NCBI GenBank assembly: GCA_902765005.1
Contig: CACWYB010000004.1
Location: 95,179-159,178 of the forward strand
DNA from: an uncultured Eubacteriales bacterium
Lineage (GTDB): Bacteria; Bacillota; Clostridia; Christensenellales; CAG-138
Direction of reading: 5' to 3'
DNA: 64,000 nt
In this document: in pieces, positions 8,547-57,497 of the stretch
Position numbering within the stretch: position 1 is the stretch's first letter
Layout: every line of letters begins with the position of its first letter
Program-made: the position numbers and the translations under genes
Notes under the pieces: model-generated
The model's database searches: none
What the model saw: only the letters and a program-made list of their open reading frames with translations
Told to the model about the DNA's origin: nothing

Positions 8547-8562
8547 GAAGGGAGACGGGGAT

Positions 8563-12032: not shown

Positions 12033-12056
12033 TCAACCCTCAAACGACCGAAACCA

Positions 12057-12081: not shown

Positions 12082-12107
12082 CCATTCCAAAGAAGGAGAG
12101 TATCGAA

Positions 12108-12992: not shown

Positions 12993-13046
12993 AACAACCG
13001 CCTGACGCGGGATCAACCCCGCATCAAGCGTATAAGGAGAAGAAAC

Positions 13047-14333: not shown

Positions 14334-14346
14334 GGAGGAAGCAGCT

Positions 14347-14502: not shown

Positions 14503-14514
14503 GGAGGTAGAGCA

Positions 14515-15654
14515 ATGAAGAAAAAAGGCATTATCAGCACCTGTATCATTCTGGCCATCGCCATCGTCTGCACGGTGATCGCCGGCACCAGCTTCTATAA
14601 CAAGCGCAACTTCAAGGAAGACATCGTGACCGAAGGCAGCGCCGTCACCCGGACCTACAAGCTTTCCACCTACAACAAAAACCTGAAGGGCACCATCGCC
14701 AACGTGGATATCTACGTGCTGGAGGGCAAGGAGCCCGGTGGCAGCATCCTAATCCTGGGCGGCACCCATGCCAATGAGCCTGCGGGCCATATGGCGGCCA
14801 TCGTGATGCTGGAGCAGCTTACGGTGGAGAAGGGCACGGTCTATGTGATCCCGCAGATCAACATGTCCGGCCTGTCCCACAACGACCCCCTGGAGGGCCA
14901 GCCCCAGTTCATACACTTCACCACCAAGGACGGCAGCGTGCGGACCTTCCATTTCGGCTCCCGTGCCGCCAACCCCATCGATCAGTGGCCCGATCCGGAC
15001 ATCTACACCCATAAGCCTTCCGGCCAGGGTCTGTCCGGCTCCGAGACCCGGAACCTGAACCGGTGCTATCCCGGCCAGAAGTACGGCACCCTGTCCGAGC
15101 AGGTGGCCTACGCAGTGACCAACATGATCAACACCGAGAAGATCGACATGGAGATCGACCTGCATGAGTCCAGCCCCGAATACGCGGTGAACAACGCCTG
15201 CGTGGCCCATGAGCGGGCCATGGCCATCGCCGCCGAGGGCGTGCTGAACCTGGAGATGGACGACATCAGCATGCGTCTGGAGCCCTCGCCCGTGACCCTC
15301 CACGGCCTTACGCACCGGGAGCTGGGCGACTTCACGGACACCTACGCCCTGCTCCTTGAGGTGGGCAACCCCTCTCAGGGCCGGTTCCGGGGCTACACGG
15401 ATGAAAAGCTGGTCATCACCGGCGAGGATCCCTGCTACGTCATCGCCCAGAAACTGGGCCTGCTGTACGTGGATTACAGTGCCGGCAACTTCCCCCTCTC
15501 GCTGCGCGTGGCCCGTCACGTGGCCGGCTGCGCGGCCTTCATCCAGGCCTATAACGACAGCCTGGACGACGACGCCCGTGCCATCATCATCGACAACGTG
15601 CCCGATTATCATGAAATGGTGGAGACCGACGATCTGGGCCTGTATCTTCGGTAA
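14515..15654 (+). CDS. Succinylglutamate desuccinylase/aspartoacylase (AstE/AspA, M14-like) family zinc hydrolase, membrane-anchored
   Basis: It has an N-terminal TM (IISTCIILAIAIVCTVIAG). Zinc motifs seen: GGTHANEPAG (HxxE) and IDLHES. Confidence 0.7.
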   Translation: MKKKGIISTCIILAIAIVCTVIAGTSFYNKRNFKEDIVTEGSAVTRTYKLSTYNKNLKGTIANVDIYVLEGKEPGGSILILGGTHANEPAGHMAAIVMLEQLTVEKGTVYVIPQINMSGLSHNDPLEGQPQFIHFTTKDGSVRTFHFGSRAANPIDQWPDPDIYTHKPSGQGLSGSETRNLNRCYPGQKYGTLSEQVAYAVTNMINTEKIDMEIDLHESSPEYAVNNACVAHERAMAIAAEGVLNLEMDDISMRLEPSPVTLHGLTHRELGDFTDTYALLLEVGNPSQGRFRGYTDEKLVITGEDPCYVIAQKLGLLYVDYSAGNFPLSLRVARHVAGCAAFIQAYNDSLDDDARAIIIDNVPDYHEMVETDDLGLYLR

Positions 15655-15668
15655 GCCAATCACCAGGC

Positions 15669-15700
15669 AAAGGGGCGGCGAGTCATCGCTGTCCCTTTTT
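15669..15700 (+). terminator. Imperfect hairpin plus T-run
   Basis: GGGGCGGCGA-gtca-TCGCTGTCCC (8 of 10 positions pair) followed by TTTTT. Confidence 0.4.
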
Positions 15701-15815
15701 CTATTCGCAAAAAGATTTCTCTTGAGATGACCCGGTCCGGACAAAAGAAAAACTGGACAGAGAACACACGGAAGATTACAATAAAAAATAACGAAAACGT
15801 TTCTGCGAGATCGAA

Positions 15816-16985
15816 ATGGATAGAACCGAGATACTCATTCTGATACTGTCCCTGCTCCTCTTTGCGCGGTTGGTTTGGGAAGCCCTTCGAGCCCGCAAGG
15901 ATCGGAAGGCTGTTTCCCATGTGGTCTATGTGAACGGCACCCGGGGCAAGTCCACCGTCACCCGGATGATCGCCGCGGGCCTGTCCGCCGGGGGGCATCG
16001 GGTCCTGTGCAAAACCACCGGCACTCTGCCCATCGCCATCCATCCCAACGGCCGGCAGGAGCTCATCGAGCGAAAAGCCCCGGCCAACATCCGGGAGCAG
16101 CTCACCTATCTGCATAAGGCGGCCAAGGAGCAGGCGGATATTCTGGTCATCGAATGCATGGCCCTGCAGCCCGAGTATCAGCGGGTGTCCGGGCGGGACA
16201 TGCTCGCCTGCGACGTGGGCGTCATCACCAACGCCCGGCTGGACCACATGGACGTCATGGGCCAGACCCGGGAGGAGATCCTCACCTGCCTTATGGAAAT
16301 GCTCCCCAAGGACGGAAAGATCTTTACGGCGGAGCGGGATTTTCCCGCCATGCTGGAGAAAAAAGCCCGGGAGCTGGGCAGCGCTCTGACCATCACAGAC
16401 CCGGCGTCCGTGGAAGATATCCCCGGGGCCATGGAGCTGGACTTCCCCGAGAACGTGGCCCTGGCCCTGGCGGTCTGCCAGGGGCTGGGGGTGGATCGAC
16501 CGACCGCCTTTGAGGGCATCCGTCATTTCGTGCGGGACCCCTTCGCTCTGTCCGTTTTCTCGGGGAAAAACCTGACTTTCGTCAATGCCCTTTCCGCCAA
16601 CGACGTGAGCTCCACCCAGATGATCTATGAGAAGACCCGGGGCCCGGCAGAGGAGGAGTTGGTCATCCTCATCAACAACCGGGGGGACCGTCCCGCCCGG
16701 GCCCGGGACATGGCCCGGCTTTGCCGGGTGATGCAGCCTAAAAGGATCTGGCTCCTGGGGGACGAGCAGCAGGCCCTGTCCCGGCTGTGCCGGCGGGCGG
16801 CGCCGGAGGCGGACATACAGGGGTTCCAAAGGGCGGAGCAGATCCCCCTTGAAAGCCAGGCGCCCCGGCTGATCCTGGCGGTGGGGAACATCAAAAATGA
16901 GGGCATGCGCCTGGTGGAGCGGGCCCAGCGGGAGCTGCAGGAGAAGCCGGTCATGAAGGAGGCGGAGAAGAGCCGTGTACAGTAA
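15816..16985 (+). CDS. pgsB: Poly-gamma-glutamate synthase PgsB/CapB
   Basis: It has an N-terminal TM followed by the Mur-ligase P-loop VYVNGTRGKSTVTRMI. At 389 aa it is collinear with PgsB (IECMALQPEYQ, ITNARLDHMDVMG). Confidence 0.9.
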   Translation: MDRTEILILILSLLLFARLVWEALRARKDRKAVSHVVYVNGTRGKSTVTRMIAAGLSAGGHRVLCKTTGTLPIAIHPNGRQELIERKAPANIREQLTYLHKAAKEQADILVIECMALQPEYQRVSGRDMLACDVGVITNARLDHMDVMGQTREEILTCLMEMLPKDGKIFTAERDFPAMLEKKARELGSALTITDPASVEDIPGAMELDFPENVALALAVCQGLGVDRPTAFEGIRHFVRDPFALSVFSGKNLTFVNALSANDVSSTQMIYEKTRGPAEEELVILINNRGDRPARARDMARLCRVMQPKRIWLLGDEQQALSRLCRRAAPEADIQGFQRAEQIPLESQAPRLILAVGNIKNEGMRLVERAQRELQEKPVMKEAEKSRVQ

Positions 16986-17397
16986 GATCGTCATCGTGGG
17001 CGTGTTGATCGCCGTTCTATATTCCGAGATAACGGGCCTTTCCACCGGCGGCCTGGTGGCTCCGGTGTACTTCGCCCTGAGCTTGAACGACCCCTGGCGC
17101 ATCGGCTACACCCTGGCCATCATCCTGGGGGTCTATGGCCTTGACAGGCTCCTGAGCCGGTTTTTGATCCTTTACGGCAGGCGGCTCTTCGCCGTGAATG
17201 TGATTTTGAGCTTCGCCCTCACCTATCTGGTGGGCCTTTCGGGGGTATTGCCCTTCGGCATCCGGATCATCGGCTACCTGGTCCCCGCCCTGATCGTGCG
17301 GGATCTGCAGCGGCAGGGCTTTGTGAAAACCGGCATCTCCCTGGGGGCGGTCACGGCCCTGTGCGCCCTGTGCCTTATGTGGGTGGGCATGCTATGA
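16975..17397 (+). CDS. pgsC: Poly-gamma-glutamate synthesis membrane protein PgsC/CapC
   Basis: GTG 16975 overlaps the pgsB end. It is 140 aa with 4 TM segments. The blocks EITGLSTGGLVAPVYFAL, ILYGRRLFAV and GYLVPALIVRDLQRQG match PgsC. Confidence 0.9.
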   Translation: MYSKIVIVGVLIAVLYSEITGLSTGGLVAPVYFALSLNDPWRIGYTLAIILGVYGLDRLLSRFLILYGRRLFAVNVILSFALTYLVGLSGVLPFGIRIIGYLVPALIVRDLQRQGFVKTGISLGAVTALCALCLMWVGML

Positions 17398-18482
17398 GCG
17401 GCAAGCGGCTGGCTCTACAATGGGGGTGCTTGGCCCTCTCCCTTCTTTTGGTCCTGGGAGCAGGCATTCTCGCCCGGCGCCAAAGGCGGCTGCCCTATGC
17501 TCAAAAGATGGAGGAAGCGGCCCGGCTCCATGAGCAGGCGACGGCCCTCATCCGGGAGGAGAAGGCGAGGCGTGGCGTGGCCCTTGCAGCGGAGGATACC
17601 CTGGGCATCGGCCTGCTGGGCTACGATTTCACCGCCATCATGACCACCGCCGCCGGCCTGGAGGAAAAGCGCACCAGCCAGCTGCCAGACTTTGCCGCCC
17701 TCTGCGTCCGCTACTTTTCGGAGGCGGGTCTGCAGCCCGGGGACCCGGTGGGCGCCAACTTCTCCGGCTCCTATCCGGGGCTCAATCTGGCCGCCCTTTG
17801 CGCCGCGGAGGTCATGGGCTTGGACCTGCGCTATTCCACCTCCGTGGGCTCCTCTAAATATGGGGCCAACAACCCGGAGTATACCTTTCCCGAGATGGCC
17901 AAAACCCTCTATGACGCCGGCCTTATCTCCGCCCTGCCCGTGCTGGTCACCATGGGCGGCGGGGGCGACATGGGTTACAATATGATGGCCTATGTGCTGG
18001 AAGAGGAGGAGGATCTGCAGGCGGTGGAGGCCCTGAAGCGCCGTTTGGCGGCGGCGGACCTCACCCCGGCGGCCATCGAAAGCTTTGGGCAGGATATTGA
18101 GCTCCATGAGCGGCTCTACGGAAACATCAAGGCCTTCGTGAACGCCGGGGGCAACAGCCTGGGCCTGGGCTCCTCCGACAACACACGCATGCTCTCCCTG
18201 GGCAGCGGACTTCTTGCGCCGCAGCCCATCCAGATCAGCCCCAACAGCGGCCTTACGGAGCGATATTTTGCCAAGGGCATCCCCACCATCCACCTGCTGA
18301 ATGTGCGCGCCCTCTGCACCGAAAGCGGCATCCCCTTCGACCCGAAGACCCTGCCGGCCATCGGCGCCGCCGCCATGTACTATGGGGGCACCTACGCGCC
18401 CCTTTCCCTCCTGGCCCTGCTCCTTGCCACGGGGGGAGCGGCCGGATTCTTTCTTTTGAAGCGAAGGGAGGCGAAGCCATGA
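17394..18482 (+). CDS. Poly-gamma-glutamate system accessory protein, paralog 1 (bitopic: N- and C-terminal TM)
   Basis: ATGA overlap with pgsC. From memory it resembles the 'poly-gamma-glutamate system protein' family that accompanies pgsB/pgsC when pgsA is missing. The C-terminal TM plus KRREAKP tail is seen directly. Confidence 0.65.
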   Translation: MSGKRLALQWGCLALSLLLVLGAGILARRQRRLPYAQKMEEAARLHEQATALIREEKARRGVALAAEDTLGIGLLGYDFTAIMTTAAGLEEKRTSQLPDFAALCVRYFSEAGLQPGDPVGANFSGSYPGLNLAALCAAEVMGLDLRYSTSVGSSKYGANNPEYTFPEMAKTLYDAGLISALPVLVTMGGGGDMGYNMMAYVLEEEEDLQAVEALKRRLAAADLTPAAIESFGQDIELHERLYGNIKAFVNAGGNSLGLGSSDNTRMLSLGSGLLAPQPIQISPNSGLTERYFAKGIPTIHLLNVRALCTESGIPFDPKTLPAIGAAAMYYGGTYAPLSLLALLLATGGAAGFFLLKRREAKP

Positions 18483-37254: not shown

Positions 37255-40200
37255 ATGAAAAAGCAACTGTGTCTCTTCATAGCCCTCGTCATGGTTGCGG
37301 GGCTCATATCGTTCCCGGTCAGCACCTTCGCCCAGGATGACCCCGTGCGGGTCCTGCTGAGCACGGAGGGACGGGATGTTTTGACCTTGACCCTTTCCGG
37401 CACCTATACCGCCAACGGCGTCACCCTCACCGGCGGTACATTGACGGTGGCCGTGTCCGGCATGGACGTGGTGGCGACCCACGATCAGCAAGGAGAGCTG
37501 TTCACCGGGGAACGCTTCACCCTGTCCGCCGCCGCGGAAGCCGGGGAGGACGCCTGCTTCACCCTGGCCACGGCCGGGGCCAAGGAGCGTCAATACAAGG
37601 GCGACGTGACCTTCGATGTGTCCGCCGGCGCCGTGCGGGCGGTGAACACCGTGGGCATGGAGGCCTATATCGCCGGGGTGGCCGTGCCCGAGGTGGGCAA
37701 GAACGCCGCCGAAGCCCTGCTCAAGGCGGCCATGGTGGCGGCCAAGGGCTATGCCCTGGCGGAGATGGGCGTCAGCGGCAGCAAGGCCTATGACGTGGAC
37801 GATACCTCCGCCGATCAGGTCTACAACGGCTATTTCCCCACGGCGGATCGGGTCAACGCCTGCGCCGCGGAGGTGGCGGGGGAGACCCTGCTCTACAACG
37901 GCCAGCCCATCAAGACCCACTACGGCTCCAGCAACGGCGGTGTCATCCTGACACCCAAGGCCAAGTGGGGCGGCGGCCAGGCCTATTCCGGCGCCTACGA
38001 GTGCAAGTTCGATCCCTTTGACATCACCCGCACCGAGGTGGTGAACCTGATGATCCCCGTCACGGGGAACGCCCCTGAGACCCTGCCCGAGAAGCTCTAT
38101 GAATACCTGCTGTCCAAGGCCGGCGGCGACGCCATTTTGGCCATCGACGCCCTGGAAGGCTACTGCAGCAAGAGCGACGCGCCCGCGGGCTACGCGCCCC
38201 AGGATGGCTTCACCGCCACGCTCCAGGTGCGCCGGGGGGCTTCCGCCGCCACGGAAACGGTGCAGGTGACCTTCGACGAGCTGTCCAAGAACAAGATCGT
38301 CCTGAGCGACAACAGCGTCCGCTTCGCCACCCAGGTGAGCAGCGGCAGCTGGCTCCTCTGCTGGGGCCAGAGCAAGGGCTCCCGGGTGGGCCTGTCCCAG
38401 AAGGGGGCGGCCCGCATGGCGGATCTGGGCTACAGCTATGCGGACATCCTCAAGTTCTACTATCCCAACGCCGTCCTGACCCGCAGCGACGGGACCGTGG
38501 TCCCTTCCCAGGCTGACCTTTCCACCGCCGCCGTCATGCAGAAGCTGCAGAGCGCGGGGAATCGGAGCATCACGACCACCGGCTATGTGAACGCCGAGAA
38601 CGTGCAGCTCATGAGCAAGGCCTCCTCCAGCGCGGATGTGTGCGCCCGGCCCACCACGCTCAGCCGCTTTGGCATCTATCAGAAGCAGGGGGATTGGTAC
38701 TTCGGCATCGACCTTACCACCGGCGTTCAGGGCTGGGTCCACAAGAGCCAGCTCACCGAGGGCGAGCCTCCCGCCGACCTGCCCACCCCCACCAGCACCC
38801 CCAGCCCCTATGTGAACCTGTCCAGCAGCGTTCTCCACGCCCCGGAGGATCAGCCTGACGACACCGTCATCGGCACCGTCAACACCGACGGCGTGAACGT
38901 TCGTCAGGAGCCCTCCAAGGACAGCGAGAAGCTGGCCCAGTGCAACAAAGACGACCAGGTCTACATCTTCCACCGCACCGGAGACTACTACTACGTGCAG
39001 CTCCCCGGCACGGAGATCAAGGGGTATATCCTGACCAAGTATGTGGACACGGAGAACGAGCAGGATATCCCCGAGGTCACCCCCGAGCCTACGGAGGAGC
39101 CCACGCCGACCCCCACCGAGGAGCCCACGCCGACCCCCACGGAGGAGCCTACGCCAACCCCCACGGAGGAGCCTACGCCGACTCCCACGGAGGAGCCTAC
39201 GCCGACTCCCACGGAGGAGCCCACGCCGACCCCCACGGAGGAGCCCACGCCGACCCCCACGGAGGAGCCCACACCGACCCCCACGGAGGAGCCTACGCCG
39301 GCCCCCACGGAGGAGCCTACGCCGACTCCCACGGAGGAGCCTACACCGACCCCCACCGAGGAGCCCACGCCGACCCCCACGGAGGAGCCCACGCCGACCC
39401 CCACGGAGGAGCCTACGCCGACCCCCACGGAGGAGCCTACGTCGGCCCCCACGGAGGAGCCTACGTCGGCCCCCACGGAGGAGCCTACGCCGACCCCCAC
39501 CGAGGAGCCCACGCCGACCCCCACGGAGGAGCCCACGCCGGCCCCCACGGAGGAGCCTACGCCGACCCCCACGGAAGAGCCTACGCCGGCCCCCACGGAG
39601 GAGCCCACGCCGGAGCCCACGGAAGAGCCTACCCCCGAACCCACCCCTGTCCCCACGGACACTCCGTCGCCCGCGCCTACGGACACCCCGTCGCCCACGC
39701 CCAGCGGTCCGCCCAAGGAGCCCACCCAGGAGATGATCGACAAGGCCGTGAAGGGCAAGCTCATCAAGAGCGGCGTCAACATGCGGGAAGGCCCCAGCAC
39801 CAGCTATAATCTGGTGGACAGCGGGCTAAAGAGCGGCACCGTGGTCACGGTCTACGGGTCCTACGGGTCCTTCTACTTCCTCCGGGTGGACAGCACCAAG
39901 AAGTATGGCTACATCTCCAAGCAGTTCATCCGGCTGGATACGGACGACGACGATGACGACGAGCCCGAGCCCACCAAAAAGGCCACGGCGGAGCCGGCCA
40001 TCCGGCTGAGCCAGGGCGATGTGAACGGGGACGGCCTGGTTTCCGCCGCGGACGCGGCCCTGGTCATCCGCTATGACGCCGGCCGCATCGATCTAAGCGA
40101 CGCCCAGCTCAAGGCCGCCGACATGGACGGGGACGATCAGGTCACCACCATGGACGCCAAGGCCATCCTGCGCTACGTGGCCAGCCGCATGATCCGGTAA
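37255..40200 (+). CDS. Secreted SpoIID/LytB-domain protein with SH3-like domains, long PT-rich repeat linker and C-terminal dockerin
   Basis: Signal peptide [26 protein letters not shown]. SpoIID block seen ([34 protein letters not shown]). SH3b-like segments flank about 23 EEPTPTPT units. The C-terminus carries [20 protein letters not shown]...[19 protein letters not shown]. Confidence 0.8.
39088..39640 (+). repeat. 24-nt in-frame tandem repeat (EEPTPTPT), about 23 copies
   Basis: GAGGAGCC(C/T)ACGCCGAC(C/T)CCCAC(G/C) is reiterated head to tail. Variants PAPT, SAPT and PEPT are present. Confidence 0.95.
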
Positions 40201-48217: not shown

Positions 48218-48339
48218 ATCAGCCCATTGCGGCGGGAATGTATACAGAGTGTAAAATCTGACCCCCGCCCATTGGAAGGAGCTCCCCCTGTATGCTATGA
48301 TACAGCGAACGACTATTATTCAGGAAACGAGGAAAGGGA

Positions 48340-51300
48340 ATGAAGCGTAGGCGCGCGCAAGCGGCGTTGGTCAAGCCTGCCGTAGCGATCATATTGGTGC
48401 TGCTGCTCATCATCGGGGTGAGCTGGGCCTCCTGCCACAAGAAGAAGGCAGCCCAGACCACCGAATCGGTCCAGCTGACCACGGACATTGTCATCAGCGA
48501 GATCATGGCCAGCAACACGGGCATCGTCTCCGACGGAGCGGGGAACCACCCGGACTATGTGGAGATCCACAACACCTCCGCCCATGAGCAGGACATCTCC
48601 GGCTGGGGCCTCTCCGACCGGGAGGATAGGCTCTGGGTCTTCCCCGACAGAACGGTGCTGCCCCCTGACGGCTATATCCTGGTCTGGTGCACCGGCGAAG
48701 AGGTGGAAAACGCCCTCATCGCCGACTTCAAGCTCAGCGCCGGGGACGTGATCCGGCTCACCAACGCCGGCGGCGAGCCCCTGTTCACCATGGAGATTCC
48801 CTCCATCTACACCGGCTATACCCTGAGCTGGGACGACGTGGGCAAGCAGTACACCCAGATGCTGCCCTCGCCCCTGTTTCCCAACACCCCGGCCGGCATC
48901 GCCGCCTATGAGGAGAGCCGGAAGCTGGGCGAAAACAACACGCCGCTCAGCGTGGGTACCACGGCCCAGCACAACGGGGTCTATATCTCCGAGCTCATGG
49001 CCCGCAACGGCACCACCACCGCCGGTCCCAACGGCCTGTATCCGGATTGGATCGAGCTGTTCAACACCACCAACGGCCCTGTGGACCTCTCCGGCTGCGG
49101 CCTGAGCGATGACATCCGCAAGCCCTATACCTACACCTTCCCTGCCGGCACCACCATCGGCGCCGGGGAGTATCTGCTCCTTTGGTGCATGCCCGAGGCG
49201 GTGGAGGGCTATATCTCCCTGCCCTTCAACCTGTCCGGCAGCAAGGGCGATTCCCTGATCCTGGTGGATCAGAACGGCGGCATCCTGGATATGTGCGAGT
49301 TCGGCGCCCAGGAGAAGGACTACAGCCTGATCCGCGGCTACACCGCCACTGGCGAGCTGGACACGGCCGCCGGCTTTGTCTCCTCCGACAAGCCCACCCC
49401 CGGCTATCCCAACACCACCGCCGGCTACAACGCCTTCGACAAGCAGCGGAACCCGGACGTGGGCGTCCACGACATCACCTTCTCCGAGGTCCTGTCCGAC
49501 GGCTACCGCTACAAGCTGGACAGCAAGGGCGTGCCCGACGACGACGATCAGGGCAAGTGGGTGGAGCTCTACAACCGCTCCGATCAGAGCGTGGACCTAT
49601 CCGGCTACTCCCTCTCAGACAACGAGAAAAAGCCCACGAAATGGGTTTTTCCTGAGGGAACGAGTATCGCCGGGAAAGGATATCTCATCCTCTACATGAG
49701 CGGCAGCCTCCCGCTGGAGGGCCAGAAGGAGAGCACCGTCACCGCCGAGATGAAGGCGCGGACGCTGAACTTCTCCGTTTCCGCTCAGGGGGAGACACTC
49801 TATCTCTACGACAACAACAGCACCCTCATCGATCGGGTGAGCGTGCCTGCCTGCACGGCCTGCGTGTCCTACGCCAAGGTGGGGGACACCTGGGGCCTGT
49901 GCGACACCCCCACCCAGGGAGCGGCCAACACCGCACCGCTGAAGGGTACGGCCTACTGCCACGCCCCGGAGGCCTCTTTGGCCAGCGGCGTTTACCACGG
50001 CACCCAGACCGTGAGCATGGAGATCCCCGCCGGGACCTACGTGACCTACACCCTGGACTGCACCACCCCCACGGAATCCTCCACCCGGTATCGGGCCGGG
50101 GAGCAGCTGACCTTCAGCCAAAACGCCGTGCTGCGGGCCCGGGCGTTCAGCGAGGACGGGAGCCTGTATAAGAGCCCGGTGATCTCCAACACCTACATCA
50201 TCGTAGGCGACACCCAGACCACTGACGCCCACGACTCCACTCTCCCCGTGTGCTTCCTGGTCACGGATCCGGACAATCTGTTCAACGTGGATTACGGCAT
50301 CTACGTGGTGGGCAGCCACTACCAGGGCAAGACCGCGGCCACGGAGTGGACCACCCCGGCCAACGACCGAAAGCTGGGGGCCAACTACAACCAGCGGGGC
50401 CGGGAGTGGGAGCGGCAGGCCCATTGGACCTACACCAGTCCCGGGGGACAGGGAGTGCTCTTTGAGCAGGATCTGATGATCCGCATCTTCGGCGCCTTCT
50501 CCCGCTACCAGAAGCAGCGAAACTTCGCCCTCATCGCCCGCAAGGGCTTCGGCGGATCCACCTTCGACTATCCGTTCTTCGCCAACAGGCCCTTTGAGAG
50601 CTATGAATCGCTGGTGCTCCGCTGCTCCGCCAAGGACGCCGTGGCCACCAAGATCCGGGACATCCTGATCACCGGCCTGGTGGAGGACGCGGGGCTGGAC
50701 ACCTGCATTCAGGCCTATGTGCAGACCGCCCTGTATCTCAACGGCCAGTACTGGGGATGCTACAATCTCAGGGAGAAGGTGAGCCGGGCGTTCCTGGCCC
50801 AGCACTACTCCGTCACCAACAAGGACAGCATCGATGTGCTCAAGGGCAACGGCGTGTACGTATCCGGGAATCCCTCGTGCGTGGACGACTATAACGCCCT
50901 CATCAAGTACTGCGAGAACAAGAACTGCGATTTGAGCAACTACGGGGACTATGAGTACGTCTGCTCCCAGATCGACGTGGAGAACTACGCCCTCTACTGC
51001 GCGGTGGAGGTCCTGGTGGGCAACAACGACTCGGGCAACATCAAGTGGTGGCGCTCCAGCGAGAAGGACAACAAGTGGCGCTGGATCCTCTACGACTTCG
51101 ACGATGCCATGGCCCGGAACGACGAGAAGGAGGACGCCTACACCAACGGCTATCGGCGCGACTTCTTCACCAAGTATTTCAACCCCAAGGGGCATGGCGC
51201 CGGCCAGGGCTTTTCCACGGTCCTCTCCCGGTCCCTGCTGAAGAACAACGACTTTGTGGAGATCTTCCTGCGGGCCTGCGCCCAGGTGGTGGACGCTTTT

Positions 51301-51546
51301 GCTCCCGAGAAGATCACCGCCAAGGTGGACGCCCTCTCCGGGAACATCGCCTCGGAGATCGAGTGGGATTTCCCCCGCTGGAGCCTGACGGTGAAGAACT
51401 GGAAAGCCCATCTGAACAACGTGAAGGGCTATGCCACCCACTACCAGGAGTACTACTTCAAGTATCTGAAGGCGTACATCAAGAAGAACACCAACTATAA
51501 GCTGACGGACCAGAAGATGCTGGATATCTTCGGCCGAACCGAGTAA
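48340..51546 (+). CDS. Membrane-anchored protein with three lamin-tail (LTD) domains and a CotH kinase-family domain
   Basis: Signal anchor AVAIILVLLLIIGVSWA. There are three LTD-like units (ISEIMASN..PDYVEIHNTS..ISGWGLSD; ISELMARN..PDWIELFNTT..LSGCGLSDD; FSEVLSDG..KWVELYNRS..LSGYSLSDNE). The C-terminal half shows CotH-like blocks (LRCSAKD..IRD, LNGQYWGCYNLREK, WRWILYDFDDAM). Confidence 0.75.
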   Translation: MKRRRAQAALVKPAVAIILVLLLIIGVSWASCHKKKAAQTTESVQLTTDIVISEIMASNTGIVSDGAGNHPDYVEIHNTSAHEQDISGWGLSDREDRLWVFPDRTVLPPDGYILVWCTGEEVENALIADFKLSAGDVIRLTNAGGEPLFTMEIPSIYTGYTLSWDDVGKQYTQMLPSPLFPNTPAGIAAYEESRKLGENNTPLSVGTTAQHNGVYISELMARNGTTTAGPNGLYPDWIELFNTTNGPVDLSGCGLSDDIRKPYTYTFPAGTTIGAGEYLLLWCMPEAVEGYISLPFNLSGSKGDSLILVDQNGGILDMCEFGAQEKDYSLIRGYTATGELDTAAGFVSSDKPTPGYPNTTAGYNAFDKQRNPDVGVHDITFSEVLSDGYRYKLDSKGVPDDDDQGKWVELYNRSDQSVDLSGYSLSDNEKKPTKWVFPEGTSIAGKGYLILYMSGSLPLEGQKESTVTAEMKARTLNFSVSAQGETLYLYDNNSTLIDRVSVPACTACVSYAKVGDTWGLCDTPTQGAANTAPLKGTAYCHAPEASLASGVYHGTQTVSMEIPAGTYVTYTLDCTTPTESSTRYRAGEQLTFSQNAVLRARAFSEDGSLYKSPVISNTYIIVGDTQTTDAHDSTLPVCFLVTDPDNLFNVDYGIYVVGSHYQGKTAATEWTTPANDRKLGANYNQRGREWERQAHWTYTSPGGQGVLFEQDLMIRIFGAFSRYQKQRNFALIARKGFGGSTFDYPFFANRPFESYESLVLRCSAKDAVATKIRDILITGLVEDAGLDTCIQAYVQTALYLNGQYWGCYNLREKVSRAFLAQHYSVTNKDSIDVLKGNGVYVSGNPSCVDDYNALIKYCENKNCDLSNYGDYEYVCSQIDVENYALYCAVEVLVGNNDSGNIKWWRSSEKDNKWRWILYDFDDAMARNDEKEDAYTNGYRRDFFTKYFNPKGHGAGQGFSTVLSRSLLKNNDFVEIFLRACAQVVDAFAPEKITAKVDALSGNIASEIEWDFPRWSLTVKNWKAHLNNVKGYATHYQEYYFKYLKAYIKKNTNYKLTDQKMLDIFGRTE

Positions 51547-51558
51547 AGGAAGGCAGCC

Positions 51559-52245
51559 ATGGAATACAGGCATGAAATCAAATACCTGATCAGCCTGGGG
51601 GAGGCGGAATATCTGGCCACCCGGCTGCGGCTCACCCTGTCCCAGGACCCCTACGCCGTCAAGAACGGAGGGACCTACTTCATCCGCAGCCTCTACTTCG
51701 ACACGCCCTTCGAGCGGGCCGTGGAGGAGAAGACGGACGGCGTGGCGTTTCGGGACAAGTACCGCATCCGCATCTATGATATGTCCGACAAGACCATCAA
51801 GTTCGAGCGCAAGCACAAGAACGGCCAGTTCATCGGCAAGCAGAGCCTGCTCCTTACCCGGCAGCAGACCGAGGCCATCCTGGCCGGGGAGTACGGCTTC
51901 CTCCTCCATCGAAAGGAGGACTTCGCCGCCGAGCTCTATGCCGCCCTTCGAACCGAGGGCTGGCGGCCCCGGGTCCTGGTGGATTACGATCGGGAGCCCT
52001 TCGTCTTCCCCCTGGAGGACGTGCGCATCACCATCGATCGGAACATCCGCACAGGCCTTCGCTGCACGGACCTGTTCAACCCCCATGCGCCCACCTTCCC
52101 CGCCACGGAGTTTGAGGACGCTTGCATCCTGGAGGTGAAGTTCGACCGCTACCTGCCCGGGTACGTGCGCTCCCTCATCCAGGTGGACGCGGCCAGCCAC
52201 ACGGCGGCCAGCAAGTATCTCTTCTGTCGTCAGTTTGATTTTTAA
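51559..52245 (+). CDS. VTC-domain (polyphosphate polymerase-like, triphosphate tunnel) protein
   Basis: MEYRHEIKYLIS..., YFIRSLYFDT, YRIRIYD, and KFERKHK alternating basic beta-strands, as in VTC/CYTH tunnel domains. Confidence 0.7.
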   Translation: MEYRHEIKYLISLGEAEYLATRLRLTLSQDPYAVKNGGTYFIRSLYFDTPFERAVEEKTDGVAFRDKYRIRIYDMSDKTIKFERKHKNGQFIGKQSLLLTRQQTEAILAGEYGFLLHRKEDFAAELYAALRTEGWRPRVLVDYDREPFVFPLEDVRITIDRNIRTGLRCTDLFNPHAPTFPATEFEDACILEVKFDRYLPGYVRSLIQVDAASHTAASKYLFCRQFDF

Positions 52246-52278
52246 TATATTGCGCAAACGCAGGAAAAGGAGAAAACA

Positions 52279-52935
52279 ATGGACAACGTATTTCAGTACA
52301 TCTTCCAGCTGCAGAACTATCAGCCCATGCTCACCATTCTCACGGTGCTGGCCGCCTTCCTGGTGGGGCTCTATGTGTTCTTCATCTACCGGATCACCTT
52401 CGCCGGAGTTATCTATTCTCGGACCTTCAACCTGAGCCTGGTCATGCTCTGCATGGTCACGGCCACGGTCATCATGTTCATGGCCAATAACGTGAAGCTG
52501 TCCTTGGGCATGGTGGGCGCTCTGTCCATCGTCCGTTTCCGCACCGCCATCAAGGACCCCATCGACACGGTCTTCATGTTCTGGGCCATCGCCGAGGGCA
52601 TCGCCCTGGGCGCGGGCTACTTCATTGCCGGCATCATCGCCGCCGTGTTCATCGGCCTGTGCATGATCCTCATCTCCGTCATCAAGGGCCGCGCCACTAT
52701 GCCCTATCTGCTGATCCTCCACTATGACGAGGGCGCCAGCAAGCAGATCAAGCAGATGGTGGCGCAGCTGCCCCAGGGCCGGATCAAGTCCAAGACCGTC
52801 CAGCGGGAGGGCATCGAGATGACCGTGGAGCTGCGTATCCGCCAGAGCGAGACCGGCTTCGTGGACAAGTTTATGCGTGTGGAGGGCGTGTACGACGCCA
52901 CCCTCATTGCGCACCAGGGCGACATGATCTCTTAA
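52279..52935 (+). CDS. DUF4956-family membrane protein
   Basis: Strong RBS AAAAGGAG. It has 4-5 TM segments, with the hallmark LGMVGALSIVRFRTAIKDP. Confidence 0.7.
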   Translation: MDNVFQYIFQLQNYQPMLTILTVLAAFLVGLYVFFIYRITFAGVIYSRTFNLSLVMLCMVTATVIMFMANNVKLSLGMVGALSIVRFRTAIKDPIDTVFMFWAIAEGIALGAGYFIAGIIAAVFIGLCMILISVIKGRATMPYLLILHYDEGASKQIKQMVAQLPQGRIKSKTVQREGIEMTVELRIRQSETGFVDKFMRVEGVYDATLIAHQGDMIS

Positions 52936-52956: not shown

Positions 52957-53095
52957 GCAGCTTTTCTTGAAAGAAAAGCTGCCTAAAAGAACTTTCAGAA
53001 GGGGATGAGGCTTGCGGACCATCCCAGGCATCCCCTTCTGACTTTTCTTTTTCGGTTCCTTTTTCTTTTCTTCCGAAAAGAAAAAGGAACAAAAA
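52957..53095. repeat. Composite three-hairpin repeat
   Basis: GCAGCTTTTCTTGAAAGAAAAGCTGC, AAAAGAAC, TCAGAAGGGGATG..CATCCCCTTCTGA, CTTTTCTTTTT, then GTTCCTTTTTCTTTTC-ttcc-GAAAAGAAAAAGGAAC. Confidence 0.9.
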
Positions 53096-53124: not shown

Positions 53125-54213
53125 GTGGACGCAGATCCCAGTAGCATTCCCATACGGCTGCAGCTGAACGAATCCGTTCCGGAGGCGGCGGGGCGCAGCC
53201 CCGCAGGCCTTATTCTGTTCTTTTTGGCGCTGCTTCTCTTCAGCGCTTTCTTTGCCGGCAGCGAAACGGCCCTGTCTACCGTGAACCGCATCCGCATGAT
53301 GAGCTATGCGGACGACGGGGATCGGCGGGCCCGCCGGGTCATCTATATCCTGGACCACTTCGAGGAAGCCCTGTCGGCCATCCTCATCGGCAACAACATC
53401 ATGCACATCGGCAGCGCGGCTCTGGCCACGCTGACAGCCACCCGCCTGTGGGGCGAAGGAGCCGTGGCGGCCACCACCGTGGTGACGGCCCTTTTGGTGT
53501 TCCTGGCGGCGGAGATGATCCCCAAATCCTTCGCCAAGGCCTGCTCCGAGCGGTTCGCCCTCTTCTGCGCCACGCCTCTGCTGCTGCTCATGAAGGTGCT
53601 CAAGCCCTTCATCCACCTGTTCACCGGCGTGAGCCGGGCCCTCAAGCGCCTGGCCCGCATCCCGGAGGAGGAGGACCCCACGGTCACCGAGGACGAGCTC
53701 CACGACATCATCGACTCCATCATCCCCGATGAGGAAAACGGCGTGGACGAGGACACCGCCGAGCTGGTCCAAAGCGCGCTGGAATTCACCGAGACCCCGG
53801 TCCGGGACGTGTTCACCCCCTGGAAGGAGGTCACCGTCATCCGCCGGGACATGTCCCCCAAGGCGATCGTGGCCCTCATCGAGGGCACCATCCATTCCCG
53901 CCTGCCTGTGGTAGACGGGGAGGGGAACGTGGTGGGCATGCTCCAGATCCGAAAATACCTGAAATCCTACATCCAGCGCCAGGGCCATGTGTCTTTGAGC
54001 CGGGTTATGGATAAGCCCACCTTCGTCTCCGCAGGCGCCCCCATCGACGAGCTGCTGGACACCCTGTCGAGCCAGCGGGTCCACATCGCCATCGTCCGGG
54101 ACGCGGACGAAAAGCCCCTGGGCATCATCACCGTGGAGGACATTTTGGAGGAACTGGTGGGCGAGATCTACGACGAGGACGACAGCACACCCCCGGGAGG
54201 TGGCGAGCTATGA
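53125..54213 (+). CDS. CNNM/DUF21 plus CBS-pair membrane protein (no CorC_HlyC domain)
   Basis: GTG 53125 lies 7 nt after GAGGTGG. It has FFAGSETALS..., LIGNN, and a CBS pair. Confidence 0.75.
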   Translation: MDADPSSIPIRLQLNESVPEAAGRSPAGLILFFLALLLFSAFFAGSETALSTVNRIRMMSYADDGDRRARRVIYILDHFEEALSAILIGNNIMHIGSAALATLTATRLWGEGAVAATTVVTALLVFLAAEMIPKSFAKACSERFALFCATPLLLLMKVLKPFIHLFTGVSRALKRLARIPEEEDPTVTEDELHDIIDSIIPDEENGVDEDTAELVQSALEFTETPVRDVFTPWKEVTVIRRDMSPKAIVALIEGTIHSRLPVVDGEGNVVGMLQIRKYLKSYIQRQGHVSLSRVMDKPTFVSAGAPIDELLDTLSSQRVHIAIVRDADEKPLGIITVEDILEELVGEIYDEDDSTPPGGGEL

Positions 54214-55496
54214 TCGTGAACTTCCTGCTCATCCTGGGCTGCATCCTTCTATCCGCCTTCTTCTCCGGTTCCGAGATCGCCTATTCCGCCGCCCAGGAGC
54301 TGCGGCTGGAGCACGCGGCAGAGGAGCGGGGCGGGGCCTACGCCCTGGCCCTGAAGGTGAAGAAAAGCTTTGAAAAGGCCCTCATCTCCATTCTGGTGGG
54401 CAACAACCTGGTGAACATCGGCGCCTCCGCCCTGGCCACGGTCATCGCCGTGGGCCTTATGGGGGATAAGGGCGCCTGGGTGGCCACGGCCGTCATGACC
54501 GTGCTTATCATCACCTTCGGGGAGATCTCCCCCAAGATCATGGCCAGCGCCCAGCCCGAGCGATTCAGTGCGGTGGCGGCGGTGCCTCTTCGGCTCTGGA
54601 TGGGCCTCACATGGCCCCTGACCTGGCTGCTGGAGAAGCTGTTGCACCTCATCTCCCGTCTCTGGGAGCGGGGGCAGAACAGCGGCCCGGCCGTGACGGA
54701 GGACGATCTGGAGACCATCATCGAAACCGTGGAGGACGAGGGCGTGGTGGACGAGGACACGGCGGACCTGCTGCAAAGCGCCCTGGACTTCGGCGACGTG
54801 CTGGCCTACGAGGTCATCACCCCCCGGGTGGACCTGGTGGCCATAGACCTGGACGACACCCGGGAGCAGATGCTGAAGGTGGCCTTCGCCTCCCCCTACA
54901 CCCGCATCCCGGTCTATCAGGAGACCATGGACAACATCGTGGGCATCCTGCACCTCAACCACCTCTACAAGGCCCTGGTCCAGGACCCGGACGCGGACAT
55001 CGAAGGGCTGCTCCTGCCGCCCATCTTCGTCCACAAGACCATGCCGCTCGATGACGTGTTCAACACCATGCGCAAGAAGAAGGGCCATATGGTCATCGTG
55101 ACCGACGAGTACGGCGGCACTATGGGCGTCCTCACTATGGAGGACGTGCTGGAGCAGCTGGTGGGGGACATCTGGGACGAGTCCGACGAGATCGAGGAGG
55201 AGTTTGTGGAGGTGAAGCCCCACACCTTCGAGGTGGACGGGGACATGCGCCTGGAGGATTTCTTCGCCGAGTTCGATAAGGACGAGGAGGAGATGGACGA
55301 CGACAACGCCACCGTGGGCGGCTGGGCTGTGGAGATGCTGGGGGGCTACCCCAAGCTGCGGGAGAGCTTCACTTTCGAGGATCTGACCGTCACCATCCTC
55401 AAGCGAAACAACCTGCGGGTCCTGCGCCTGCTGGTGGAGCAGGACCCCAATTGGGTGGATGAGGACGAGGTGGAGGACGATTTGATCGACCAGTGA
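54210..55496 (+). CDS. CNNM/HlyC-CorC family transporter (DUF21 + CBS pair + CorC_HlyC)
   Basis: ATGA overlap. It has FFSGSEIAYS, LVGNN, a CBS pair, and a C-terminal transporter-associated domain. Confidence 0.8.
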   Translation: MIVNFLLILGCILLSAFFSGSEIAYSAAQELRLEHAAEERGGAYALALKVKKSFEKALISILVGNNLVNIGASALATVIAVGLMGDKGAWVATAVMTVLIITFGEISPKIMASAQPERFSAVAAVPLRLWMGLTWPLTWLLEKLLHLISRLWERGQNSGPAVTEDDLETIIETVEDEGVVDEDTADLLQSALDFGDVLAYEVITPRVDLVAIDLDDTREQMLKVAFASPYTRIPVYQETMDNIVGILHLNHLYKALVQDPDADIEGLLLPPIFVHKTMPLDDVFNTMRKKKGHMVIVTDEYGGTMGVLTMEDVLEQLVGDIWDESDEIEEEFVEVKPHTFEVDGDMRLEDFFAEFDKDEEEMDDDNATVGGWAVEMLGGYPKLRESFTFEDLTVTILKRNNLRVLRLLVEQDPNWVDEDEVEDDLIDQ

Positions 55497-55533: not shown

Positions 55534-56337
55534 ATGGGTTGGATATGGATACCGGCGGCGCTGGGTGCCCTGTGGCTGTTTCTCATCGCCCCGGGCCGGG
55601 CAGGTAAAGCCGCCCGGGCGCCCTTTGAGGGCCGGGCCTATGCTCACAGGGGGCTCTATGAGCTGGATCAGTCCGTGCCGGAAAACTCCCTGCCTGCTTT
55701 CCGTCGGGCGGTGGAGCATGGCTATGGGGCGGAGCTGGATGTGCAGCTGACCAAGGATCAGCAGATCGTGGTTTTTCATGACGACAGCATGCTCCGGGCC
55801 TGCGGGGTGGAGAAAGCCATCCGCGATTTCACCTATGCCGAGCTGCAGCAGATCCCCCTTTTCAAAACGGAGCAGCGCATCCCCCTCTTTTCGGAGGTGC
55901 TGCAGATTTTCGATGGCCGGCAGCCCCTGATCGTGGAGCTCAAATACGGTCCGGACGCCCCGGCGCTTTGCGAGGCCACCCGAGCCATGCTGGCAGGCTA
56001 TGCCGGTCCGGCCTGTGTGGAGAGCTTTCACCCGGCCATGGTCCGCTGGTTCAAAAAGCATGATCCCCAACGCCTCCGGGGTCAGCTCTCCGAGGCCGCT
56101 TGCTTCTCAAAAAAGACCCTGCCCCTGCCCCTGGCGTTCATGATGAGCCGGCTGCTCACCAACTGCCTGACCCGGCCCCAGTTCATCGCCTATCGGGTGG
56201 GGCCCAAGCCTCTCAGCGTCAGGATAGCGGAGGGCATGGGCGCCATGAAGGTCCTCTGGACCGCCCGGGAGCCGGAGCGGCACGCCGCCCGCATGGGCCA
56301 AAACCACGCCGTCATCTTCGAGGGCTATCGCCCATAA
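55534..56337 (+). CDS. Glycerophosphodiester phosphodiesterase family protein, N-terminal TM
   Basis: RBS GGGAGG. It has AHRG...ENSLPAFRRAVEHGYGAELDVQLTKD..VVFHD. Confidence 0.8.
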   Translation: MGWIWIPAALGALWLFLIAPGRAGKAARAPFEGRAYAHRGLYELDQSVPENSLPAFRRAVEHGYGAELDVQLTKDQQIVVFHDDSMLRACGVEKAIRDFTYAELQQIPLFKTEQRIPLFSEVLQIFDGRQPLIVELKYGPDAPALCEATRAMLAGYAGPACVESFHPAMVRWFKKHDPQRLRGQLSEAACFSKKTLPLPLAFMMSRLLTNCLTRPQFIAYRVGPKPLSVRIAEGMGAMKVLWTAREPERHAARMGQNHAVIFEGYRP

Positions 56338-56359
56338 GGGTGTTTCCTGCATTTTTCTG

Positions 56360-56388
56360 TTGCCAGCGCCCCCTGGATTCGGTATACT
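56360..56388 (+). promoter_or_regulatory. Promoter upstream of the MotA/ExbB-like operon
   Basis: TTGCCA, 17-nt spacer, TATACT. Confidence 0.5.
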
Positions 56389-56409
56389 GCTCTACAGGAG
56401 GGAAAAGAC

Positions 56410-56919
56410 ATGTCCGTGTTTCAGGTGATCCTAAAGAACCTGCTGGGGTTCGACCTCATCATCTTTGTGGCCGCGGCTTTGAACGGGGTCTGCTACTATC
56501 TGGCCCGCAGAAACGCCAACGCCCTCTATCGCAAACTCCATATGATCGTCTTCGTTCCCTCCCGGCGCAGCGACCCGGAAAGCGTGTCCCGGGCCATTCG
56601 GGACATCGATGAGGAGCAGGTGGTGGCCATGCGCAAGCGGTCCGAAAGCCTGTATTCCGTCTTTGTCAATGTCACCGCCATCTTCCCCCTGCTGGGCATT
56701 TTAGGCACGGTGGTGTCCCTTTTGCCCATGGTCTCCGAGCTGGCCGACATGCAAACCAACTTCTTCGCCGCCCTCACCTCCACCTTTTGGGGGCTGGTGT
56801 TCGCCATCCTCTTTAAGCTCCTGGATGGCTTCCTCTCCTCCCGCATGGAGGACAACGACAAGGCCGTGAACCTGCTTTTGGAGCGCCGGGAGCTCCTGGC
56901 GGAAGGGCAGCAAGGGTGA
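56410..56919 (+). CDS. MotA/TolQ/ExbB-family proton-channel protein (169 aa, 3 TM)
   Basis: TM1, a cytoplasmic loop, then the TM2/TM3 block AIFPLLGILGTVVSLL...AALTSTFWGLVFAILFKLL typical of ExbB/TolQ. Confidence 0.75.
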   Translation: MSVFQVILKNLLGFDLIIFVAAALNGVCYYLARRNANALYRKLHMIVFVPSRRSDPESVSRAIRDIDEEQVVAMRKRSESLYSVFVNVTAIFPLLGILGTVVSLLPMVSELADMQTNFFAALTSTFWGLVFAILFKLLDGFLSSRMEDNDKAVNLLLERRELLAEGQQG

Positions 56920-57497
56920 AGCGGCGGGAGATCTTCATAGAGCTCACGTCCCTGCTGGACGTGATCCTCATCATGCTGTTCATTCTGCTCACCCAGGCCA
57001 AAGCCAGCACCGCCCAGGCCCTGGACACAGCCGCCCTGGCCGAGAGCAGTGCGGAGCAGCTGCAGACGGAGCTGTCCGCCGCCTATAGCGAGCAGGATGC
57101 GCTGCGGGAACAGATCAGCGTCCAGGCGGAGCGGGCGGACGCCCTGCAGCGGCAGCTGTGGACGCAGAACCTTGTTTTGGACAATTCCCTGCTGCTCACC
57201 GTCAGCGTGGACAGCACCGGCAGCATTCGCCTGGAAACGGAGGGAGAGGGGTACACCGTCATCGCCTACGATTGGCAAGACGACACCTACGCCCAGAACC
57301 GGCTCCGGGCCTTGGCCCTGGAGAAGCTGAACAATACGGAGCGGGAGGCGGTGTTCCTGGTTTTTCAGTTCGACCGAGCCAGCATCTACCATGCGGAGTA
57401 CGACATGATCGAAACCATCATTCAGGAAGTGAAACAGCAGGCCCGGGAGCGGGATATCCCTCTCTCGGTCCTGGAGCTGGATATATTCGAAGCATAG
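56916..57497 (+). CDS. ExbD/TolR-like TM-helix protein with coiled coil (Asp-containing TM)
   Basis: GTGA overlap with the upstream gene. IELTSLLDVILIMLFILL mirrors the ExbD/TolR TM with its conserved Asp. An Ala/Gln/Leu-rich coiled coil and an alpha/beta domain follow. Confidence 0.55.
   Translation: MKRREIFIELTSLLDVILIMLFILLTQAKASTAQALDTAALAESSAEQLQTELSAAYSEQDALREQISVQAERADALQRQLWTQNLVLDNSLLLTVSVDSTGSIRLETEGEGYTVIAYDWQDDTYAQNRLRALALEKLNNTEREAVFLVFQFDRASIYHAEYDMIETIIQEVKQQARERDIPLSVLELDIFEA

Follow-up and report, generated by a model that had tools for sequence, protein, structure and literature searches.

A pel-independent variant of the CotH, VTC and DUF4956 gene module, decorated with lamin-tail domains, in a rumen Clostridia bacterium

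The current view, as far as we are aware, is that bacterial polyphosphate (polyP) is made by PPK1 and PPK2 only. In yeast, the VTC complex (Vtc4/Vtc3/Vtc1; 3g3q, 7ytj, 8i6v) couples a polymerase with a catalytic tunnel fold to a polytopic membrane protein, the three-helix channel of the Vtc1 type (DUF202). Bacterial genes of the VTC family have been described beside genes of two other families. Whitfield et al. described the accessory genes that adjoin Gram-positive pel operons, among them cotH, a poly-phosphate polymerase gene, DUF4956 and DUF4832 (bioRxiv 10.1101/768473), and the Clostridium perfringens locus NELoc-2, published in 2010, holds adjacent genes for a VTC protein, a membrane protein that was mis-annotated as tubulin/FtsZ and CotH. 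Here we analysed a stretch of 64,000 nucleotides from an uncultured Clostridia bacterium of the rumen (this whole stretch is called the window), in which three plus-strand open reading frames (ORFs) at 48340-52935 encode a protein with three lamin-tail domains (LTDs) and a CotH domain, a VTC protein and a DUF4956 membrane protein. The locus is a pel-independent, LTD-decorated variant of an already known, functionally uncharacterised module. An earlier note on this DNA had stated that no function was demonstrated for the trio, which is correct: our literature search found no paper demonstrating one, and none describing VTC-DUF4956 together with Cthe_2159, while the trio itself had already been described beside pel operons and in NELoc-2.

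The closest treatment is a Streptococcus intermedius preprint, in which the three proteins (SIR_1594-1592) were modelled, the Vtc4-like tunnel was noted, the polyP was suggested to stay in the cytoplasm since the other VTC subunits are missing, and the trio was not found outside pel operons (bioRxiv 10.1101/2024.04.20.589940). In other papers the genes appear in expression tables only, and a 2023 review surveyed the distribution of VTC in eukaryotes only. The pel accessory clusters have CotH, VTC and DUF4956 contiguous in that order, as here, but they lie next to pelDEA(DA)FG, often with a DUF4832 hydrolase, and neither Pel nor DUF4832 families were matched in any window ORF tested, several long ORFs being Pfam-less. 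Their CotH carries a C-terminal FN3 domain, whereas the window CotH has three LTDs and a CHB_HEX_C_1 module N-terminal to the kinase. NELoc-2 (CP4_0463-0468) and a Planococcus plasmid also have the three genes adjacent, in the order VTC, DUF4956, CotH, followed by genes for a protein of about 690 aa, a HEAT protein and a chitin-synthase-like GT2, none of which was among the window ORFs tested. The membrane protein of this cassette (222-226 aa), 'tubulin/FtsZ' in 2010, is labelled DUF4956 on the Planococcus plasmid, and its CotH is short (472-497 aa) and has no LTDs, unlike that of the window. Because the defining neighbours are lacking, the window locus is placed by its sequence outside both the pel-associated and the NELoc-2 cassettes, its proteins being assigned to the VTC, CotH and DUF4956 families. 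Its clade is a counter-example to the report of no trio outside pel operons. Compared with the yeast complex, the locus shares the catalytic tunnel fold and nine mapped residues, and the polymerase is again coupled to a polytopic membrane protein, here genetically, which matches a logic of synthesis with translocation. The two proteins are separate polypeptides here, there is no SPX domain, the place of the DUF202 channel is taken by the unrelated DUF4956, with about five helices and an ACT-like domain, and the membrane is the bacterial cytoplasmic one, so that the product would go outside. As far as sequence and models tell, the likeness to the yeast complex in working would be one of analogy only.

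We collected 80 loci from one-genome-per-species contigs with VTC alone as the query; they form one clade and the counts are not independent. The closest relatives were metagenome-assembled genomes of rumen and gut Clostridia, some labelled Christensenellales, with VTC proteins 89-92% identical to that of the window. DUF4956 lay directly 3' of VTC in 79 of the 80 loci, the exception being a contig that ends 213 nt past VTC, and an LTD-CotH gene lay directly 5' in 76, the other four beginning at VTC; the gene order was kept in every testable locus. Identity to the window ranged from 52 to 92% for VTC, 55 to 98% for DUF4956 and 31 to 88% for the CotH domain, and the complete CotH ORFs (990-1150 aa) had the same architecture as gene 1. 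Among the eight closest relatives (L001-L008), DUF4956 was the most conserved protein of the trio (97-98%, against 89-92% for VTC, 82-88% for the CotH domain and 84-94% for GyrA) and was as constrained as GyrB (96-97%). On Pfam-labelled contigs the trio occupied four contexts: after recF-gyrB-gyrA (the window type), before recF-gyrB-gyrA, between a MoxR/transglutaminase pair and asnA, and between pckA and a methyltransferase gene. Neither a Pel nor a DUF4832 family was seen up to 10 kb from the trio in the relatives, whichever of the four contexts they had. Since the trio stays intact in four contexts and has no Pel family within 10 kb, its sequence neighbourhood marks it as a portable, self-contained cassette.

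A third homologue search with a mixed profile returned the window's own clade again, and breadth came from plasmids and a metagenome scan. Three plasmid matches had DUF4956 directly after VTC (3/3), and two of them carried the full trio. Pseudobutyrivibrio xylanivorans pNP95 has CotH, VTC and DUF4956 within a polysaccharide-synthesis cluster (GT2/GT4/pyruvyl-transferase); the Planococcus maritimus plasmid has VTC, DUF4956, CotH, a 689-aa protein, a HEAT-repeat protein and a chitin-synthase-like GT2; and on a Paenibacillus cellulosilyticus replicon VTC and DUF4956 are followed by a Cthe_2159-type beta-helix carbohydrate-binding protein in place of CotH. The metagenome scan, seeded with the three distant plasmid VTC proteins only, gave 80 more loci of a different VTC subfamily, whose ORFs were searched with our own profiles. 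DUF4956 came directly after VTC in all 70 loci in which the contig continued. A Cthe_2159-like neighbour was present in 32 of the 80 loci and CotH in 8, while neither was found in at least 11 loci with long flanks, where the neighbours checked were the housekeeping genes nrdD, glgB, MscS, RNase J and gyrA. The Cthe_2159-like cassette thus has the same obligate pair followed by a large protein of a carbohydrate-binding family (PF14262), which is a beta-helix protein and not a kinase. A single locus (L133, 3-5565) had CotH 5' and a Cthe_2159-like gene 3' of one VTC-DUF4956 pair, and therefore the two partners are not mutually exclusive. NELoc-2-type downstream genes were not detected in the 80 metagenome loci by phmmer with the Planococcus proteins. 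Because the linkage of the pair held in 70/70 loci while the third gene varied, the invariant unit is the VTC-DUF4956 pair, which is obligate, and its extracytoplasmic partners are optional and of at least two kinds, CotH being one; their frequent absence shows that the pair has a role even by itself. The co-localisation of the three families that the earlier note relied on was thus borne out in 80 genome loci, on two plasmids and in the published literature, but of its three-gene module only the pair proved obligate, the CotH partner being replaced or absent in the wider sample.

Several observations concern the surroundings of these genes in other genomes. The trio lies 3' of gyrA in L001-L043 and 5' of recF in L044-L073, and this flip of side suggests a rearrangement that kept the trio near the gyrase genes. 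In two unrelated loci, L084 (7712-9822, minus strand) and L117 (5718-7740, minus strand), probable response-regulator and histidine-kinase genes stand divergently just 5' of VTC-DUF4956; Pfam identified the kinases only, and they may represent a dedicated regulator of the pair. Genes for NAGPA/phosphodiester-glycosidases, some with a dockerin, and for GT4 lie near the trio in L085 (2614-4823 and 19770-20714), a complete Christensenellaceae-like genome, and in L082 (1-2231), a Pseudobutyrivibrio plasmid, and hint at phosphodiester-linked surface glycans.

The features of the window locus are the following.
48272-48301 (+): sigma-70-like promoter candidate, TTGGAA, 18-nt spacer and TG-extended TATGAT (consensus match only)
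48340-51546 (+): gene 1, 1068 aa, three LTDs, CHB_HEX_C_1 and CotH, predicted to be signal-anchored (ORF and Pfam)
48376-48432 (+): N-terminal hydrophobic segment, residues 13-31, after MKRRR; putative signal anchor or signal peptide
48478-48777 (+): lamin-tail domain 1, residues 47-146 (segment scan E 1e-15; pI 4.2)
48961-49302 (+): lamin-tail domain 2, residues 208-321 (segment scan E 3e-18)
49474-49845 (+): lamin-tail domain 3, residues 379-502 (segment scan E 1e-19)
49981-50196 (+): CHB_HEX_C_1/Fn3_assoc module, residues 548-619 (Pfam, segment scan)
50479-51444 (+): CotH atypical-kinase domain, residues 714-1035 (Pfam, profile)
51022-51030 (+): CotH catalytic-loop codons N895/D897 (alignment to 5jd9)
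51094-51096 (+): codon of the CotH metal-binding D919 (alignment to 5jd9)
51559-52245 (+): gene 2, 228-aa soluble VTC/triphosphate-tunnel protein, like the Vtc4 catalytic domain (Pfam, profile, model)
52279-52935 (+): gene 3, 218-aa DUF4956 membrane protein (Pfam, model)
52516-52566 (+): invariant DUF4956 motif G80-D96 (GALSIVRFRTAIKDPID), turn between helix 3 and helix 4 (alignment)
52959-53090 (+): three strong hairpins 3' of gene 3; a T-run comes after the second (folding)

The coordinates and sizes of the three ORFs (1068, 228 and 218 aa) are exactly those of the earlier note, its assignments to LTD, CotH, VTC and DUF4956 hold by Pfam, and the accession PF16316 that it gave for DUF4956 is correct. 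NCBIfam has a specific model for none of the three proteins.

Gene 2 consists of a single VTC domain of 228 aa (PF09359, E 5e-34). Its AlphaFold2 model (pLDDT 85) found as best PDB matches in Foldseek the catalytic domain of yeast Vtc4 (3g3r and 3g3q; E 1e-11, TM 0.71), which outranked the inactive Vtc2 domain and all hydrolase and cyclase tunnel enzymes. Single-sequence PDB searches with the three trio proteins gave nothing useful, and the Vtc4 and CotH structures were reached only when distant homologues were part of the profile. With six diverse bacterial VTC proteins combined in a profile, Vtc4 was matched with E 1e-14, Vtc2 with 3e-7 and Vtc3 with 7e-5. In the alignment, window residues R4, K8, R69, R71 and K85 correspond to Vtc4 R196, K200, R264, R266 and K281, and Y143, R145, R156 and E192 to Y359, R361, R373 and E426; the Vtc4 numbers given here are the chain index with 185 added, a rule that returns the known R264, R266, K281, Y359, R361, R373 and E426. 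These nine residues, which we take from the 2009 Vtc4 structure to be functional tunnel residues, were all invariant in VTC homologues only 24-35% identical, so that the tunnel Lys/Arg residues whose loss would have spoken against a polymerase are kept. An S218-K219-Y220 stretch is also invariant in the bacterial proteins, and the C-terminal S457/K458 segment of Vtc4 was not confidently covered by the alignments. Thus, the gene 2 protein models as a triphosphate-tunnel fold nearest to yeast Vtc4.

What was observed are the folds and families of the three proteins, their conserved catalytic residues, the obligate pairing of VTC with DUF4956, and sequence features that mark the partners as extracytoplasmic; a polymerase activity, a translocation, and a donor and substrate of CotH are what we infer. 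The soluble Vtc4-type protein would use ATP to build polyP on the cytoplasmic side of the membrane; DUF4956, with about five transmembrane helices and an invariant, basic RFR motif predicted to face the cytoplasm, would dock the polymerase and conduct the growing chain outward; and the membrane-anchored, extracytoplasmic LTD3-CHB_HEX-CotH enzyme would act on the emerging polyP. Since there is no ATP pool outside the cell, CotH would most likely take polyP as the phosphoryl donor and phosphorylate a glycan or protein of the cell surface or matrix. That the product of the pair reaches the outside is argued from the recruitment by the pair of extracytoplasmic partners of two unrelated folds and from its position in exopolysaccharide loci in other taxa. 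Supporting context comes from a 2026 preprint, in which the Bacillus cereus group was reported to form abundant extracellular polyP without PPK1 or PPK2, its source and export route not being identified. According to the same preprint, B. cereus lacks a VTC4 homologue, and the source of polyP there is therefore something other than VTC. We put the reading as a whole, in which VTC makes polyP, DUF4956 translocates it and CotH uses the chain outside, at a probability of about 0.4.

A number of points weigh against it. We know of no bacterial VTC-domain protein that was shown to make polyP, nor of a protein-kinase-like enzyme that uses polyP as donor. DUF4956 did not match the yeast Vtc channel (DUF202) even at E up to 10, and its monomer model shows no visible pore and has a pLDDT below 50 in the motif region. 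No true natural fusion of VTC and DUF4956 was present among the best 150 family representatives. The pair often stands without an extracellular partner, which makes CotH dispensable for its role, and the LTDs are acidic (pI 4.1-4.6). In S. intermedius, single deletions of the three genes did not significantly change aggregation or Pel, polyP not being assayed (bioRxiv 10.1101/2024.04.20.589940). As regards fusions, VTC and DUF4956 of the window share one reading frame, 33 nt apart (51559-52935). Two apparent fusions were set aside: P0122, a 97%-identical relative of 354 aa with both domains, does not have the VTC C-terminus and stands on a lone 2.2-kb contig, and is a probable artefact, and P0363 is joined to a citrate-synthase fragment, likely an artefact of assembly or gene calling.

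Concerning CotH, gene 1 matched LTD (PF00932, E 1e-54) in three stretches and CotH (PF08757, E 1e-42) over residues 714-1035, with 147 bits against a cut-off of 23.8 and 318 of the 322 profile positions. The three LTDs and the CotH domain had been read correctly from the sequence, and the CHB_HEX_C_1/Fn3_assoc module at residues 548-619 had been overlooked; it is of the type found C-terminally in secreted glycosidases, and its profile also matched the equivalent region of the beta-hexosaminidase structure 6q63. The N-terminal layout of MKRRR, about 19 hydrophobic residues and a first LTD was common to the 18 homologues inspected (18/18), in agreement with the proposed signal anchor, and behind a putative signal anchor or signal peptide the remainder of the protein would lie outside the cytoplasm; SWASC in this segment weakly resembles a lipobox. 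Every CotH partner inspected had a signal or anchor at its N-terminus, and streptococcal CotH orthologues occur in secretomes (bioRxiv 10.1101/2024.04.20.589940). A profile from the CotH domains of distant trios matched B. cereus CotH (5jd9) with E 5e-14 over 319 residues, while narrower CotH profiles did not reach CotH structures in the PDB search. N895/D897 align with N222/D224 of the 5jd9 chain and D919 with D247, and the 23-residue spacing of D224 and D247 equals that of D228 and D251 of B. subtilis CotH, where their mutation inactivates the kinase. Among trio CotH proteins, N895, D897, D919 and E812 stayed invariant down to 18-19% identity with the window protein. Similarly to its Bacillus homologue, the window kinase domain thus has the catalytic and the metal-binding Asp; in contrast, the Bacillus protein is intracellular, in the mother cell, without a signal sequence or LTDs, and uses ATP on CotB and CotG, whereas for the window protein an extracytoplasmic position is predicted, its gene lies with those of VTC and DUF4956, and its sequence does not point to a spore-coat location. 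Tethering of polyP through the LTDs did not stand: with a pI of about 4.1-4.6 these domains are unlikely to bind polyP by charge, and they were rejected as tethers of polyP or DNA.

If CotH did not use the chain as a donor, the exported polyP might itself be the product, a polyanion of the surface or matrix that the partner binds, anchors, trims or transfers. Several of the above results would suit this explanation: the pair is alone in many genomes, the partner seen most often in the diverse sample is no kinase but a beta-helix protein that binds carbohydrates (32 loci, against 8 with CotH), and elsewhere the trio lies inside exopolysaccharide clusters (pel, the GT2/HEAT cassette and the GT2/GT4/pyruvyl-transferase cluster). 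The extracellular polyP of B. cereus, moreover, resists exopolyphosphatase as though its ends were capped (2026 preprint). However, the catalytic Asp pair of CotH is intact over 18-88% identity, which argues for catalysis over mere binding, and an acidic ectodomain (net charge -29 to -92) would be a poor binder of a polyanion without bridging cations. We regard polyP as the end product as unlikely, though it is the best placed of the alternatives.

The second alternative concerns the membrane protein. Gene 3 matched DUF4956 (PF16316) with E 3e-9 and 37.4 bits (cut-off 30.6). Its model, of moderate confidence (pLDDT 69), has five predicted helices (residues 15-40, 48-71, 76-90, 94-111 and 115-136) and a C-terminal beta-alpha-beta-beta-alpha-beta domain (141-211). 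The GALSIVRFRT motif named in the earlier note is present, and its core (G80, A81, S83, I84, R86, F87 and R88), together with A90, D93 and D96, was invariant at 21-35% identity. By the positive-inside rule, we predict that the N-terminus is outside and that both the GALSIVRFRTAxxDxxD turn and the C-terminal domain are cytoplasmic. The family is large (5997 representatives at E up to 1e-3, in 50% identity clusters), and nearly all members are stand-alone proteins of 180-240 aa. A profile search of the PDB found no solved relative of the membrane part, Foldseek matched the small C-terminal domain alone, weakly, to ACT and NapD folds, and a sequence match to mercuric reductase was discarded as a chance match. 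DUF4956 is at best a functional analogue of the yeast VTC channel and not a homologue; of the split yeast VTC that had been proposed, the Vtc4-like tunnel protein holds and the homology of the channel is not detectable.

It could be, then, that polyP stays in the cytoplasm and that DUF4956 is an MgtC-like anchor or regulator with a ligand-sensing ACT-like domain, the secreted CotH being merely co-regulated and using another donor. The layout of MgtC/SapB is similar, with a hydrophobic N-terminal half and a cytoplasmic ACT-like domain, although homology is not established; the same holds for the G-x-x-R-T and W-x-x-A-x-G-x-x-x-G-x-G pattern in DUF4956, which is presumably reminiscent of MgtC. 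A collinear Pfam MgtC match (PF02308) was seen in 3/3 DUF4956 homologues, with E 0.2-1 and far under the cut-off, and the ACT- and NapD-like C-terminal domain and the lack of homology to the Vtc channel would fit as well. Bacterial cytoplasmic polyP is made by soluble or peripheral PPK1 with no dedicated polytopic partner, which speaks against this explanation. The tie to MgtC was not significant with hhalign against Escherichia coli YhiD (probability 0.5%), and this explanation leaves the repeated joining to extracytoplasmic proteins of two unrelated folds unexplained. A cytoplasmic polyP is essentially the suggestion of the S. intermedius preprint, in which CDD assigned the streptococcal DUF4956 orthologue to MgtC (bioRxiv 10.1101/2024.04.20.589940); we consider it improbable for this locus.

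Both explanations above keep the polymerase. The VTC protein could instead use its tunnel fold for hydrolysis or cyclisation, as a tripolyphosphatase, NTPase or adenylyl cyclase, with a product that signals to DUF4956 or by way of it. Hydrolases and cyclases make up most of the bacterial triphosphate-tunnel proteins that have been characterised; ygiF, CyaB-like and Sulfolobus TTM proteins were among the structural matches, and one Glu of the ExExK motif is kept (R4-x-E6-x-K8) where Vtc4 has a Thr. In contrast, the first Glu of this motif is replaced by Arg, as in Vtc4 (R196), the mapped phosphate-binding residues of Vtc4 are all invariant, and sequence as well as structure rank Vtc4 clearly first, before the inactive Vtc2/3 and all hydrolases, which makes a hydrolase or cyclase very improbable. 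Finally, a classical spore-coat CotH, acting with ATP in the mother cell beside VTC and DUF4956 by incidental synteny, was rejected as scarcely credible, since even though CotH was defined in spore formers and the window encodes a SpoIID-domain protein, gene 1 combines a signal anchor at the N-terminus with three LTDs and a module of the glycosidase type, the linkage survives four genomic contexts and CotH identity down to 31%, and the trio also occurs in non-sporulating streptococci and bifidobacteria (bioRxiv 10.1101/768473; 10.1101/2024.04.20.589940).

Regarding transcription, the trio is flanked by recF-gyrB-gyrA on one side and by two CNNM genes on the other. The promoter candidate sits in the 122-nt gap 3' of gyrA, where the consensus scan found two promoter-type sites against 1.0 expected. 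The ribosome-binding site upstream of the ATG at 48340 is AGGAAAGGGA, a purine-rich ribosome-binding site precedes each of the three genes, and the gaps between them are 12 nt (genes 1 and 2) and 33 nt (genes 2 and 3). Between DUF4956 and the first CNNM gene lie 190 nt of spacer that fold into three long hairpins with almost perfect pairing (-72 kcal/mol, z = -7.1). This stack is likely the end of the transcription unit, formed by terminators, and could alternatively be a repeat element; a riboswitch in the spacer was rejected, as Rfam gave only sub-threshold, hairpin-driven matches. On the basis of the promoter-like site, the ribosome-binding sites, the short gaps and the terminal hairpins, the trio is predicted to be a single self-contained operon.

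The genes that follow are two tandem CNNM/CBS (CorC-type) divalent-cation transporter genes (53125-55496, plus strand), a pair also found downstream in the closest relatives L002-L005, L007, L008 and L015 and in the more distant L016 and L018. As polyP chelates Mg2+ and Mn2+, a functional tie to the trio is conceivable, and plain synteny may explain the adjacency. Further on (55534-57497, plus strand) come a glycerophosphodiester phosphodiesterase gene and, after it, MotA/ExbB-like and ExbD-like genes, the genome being of the Gram-positive type. Elsewhere in the window, a 981-aa protein (37255-40200, plus strand) joins a SpoIID domain to several bacterial SH3 domains and carries a type I dockerin at its C-terminus, an unusual union of a cell-wall-remodelling domain with a cellulosome-type anchor. 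Long ORFs without a Pfam match lie at 6972-8936, 10152-11987, 12033-14366 and 15660-17102 on the minus strand and at 17361-18482 and 18479-19564 on the plus strand; some of these ORFs (6972-19564) may be wrong-strand shadows in GC-rich DNA and others unannotated genes.

The pel-free operon shows that the module is independent of Pel, and its phenotype is therefore to be sought in polyP and not in aggregation. A bolder generalisation, which we offer as rather doubtful, would be that VTC and DUF4956 are a third bacterial polyP route, independent of PPK1 and PPK2, that, like the yeast vacuolar VTC complex, makes and threads the chain in one step but through an unrelated channel, that interchangeable CotH and Cthe_2159-like partners exploit this chain, and that here it fuels the phosphorylation of proteins or glycans outside the cell, where ATP is lacking. 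The VTC-DUF4956 pair is a concrete and widespread candidate for a PPK-independent pathway of extracellular polyP in other Firmicutes, and its linkage to surface kinases suggests a way for bacteria to phosphorylate substrates outside the cell. Through this locus, the idea of a VTC-type system by which bacteria would make and export polyP can be tested directly. Since the trio is found both in a locus associated with virulence (C. perfringens NELoc-2) and in loci for biofilm (pel), its function would be relevant to disease and to the ecology of the gut and rumen.

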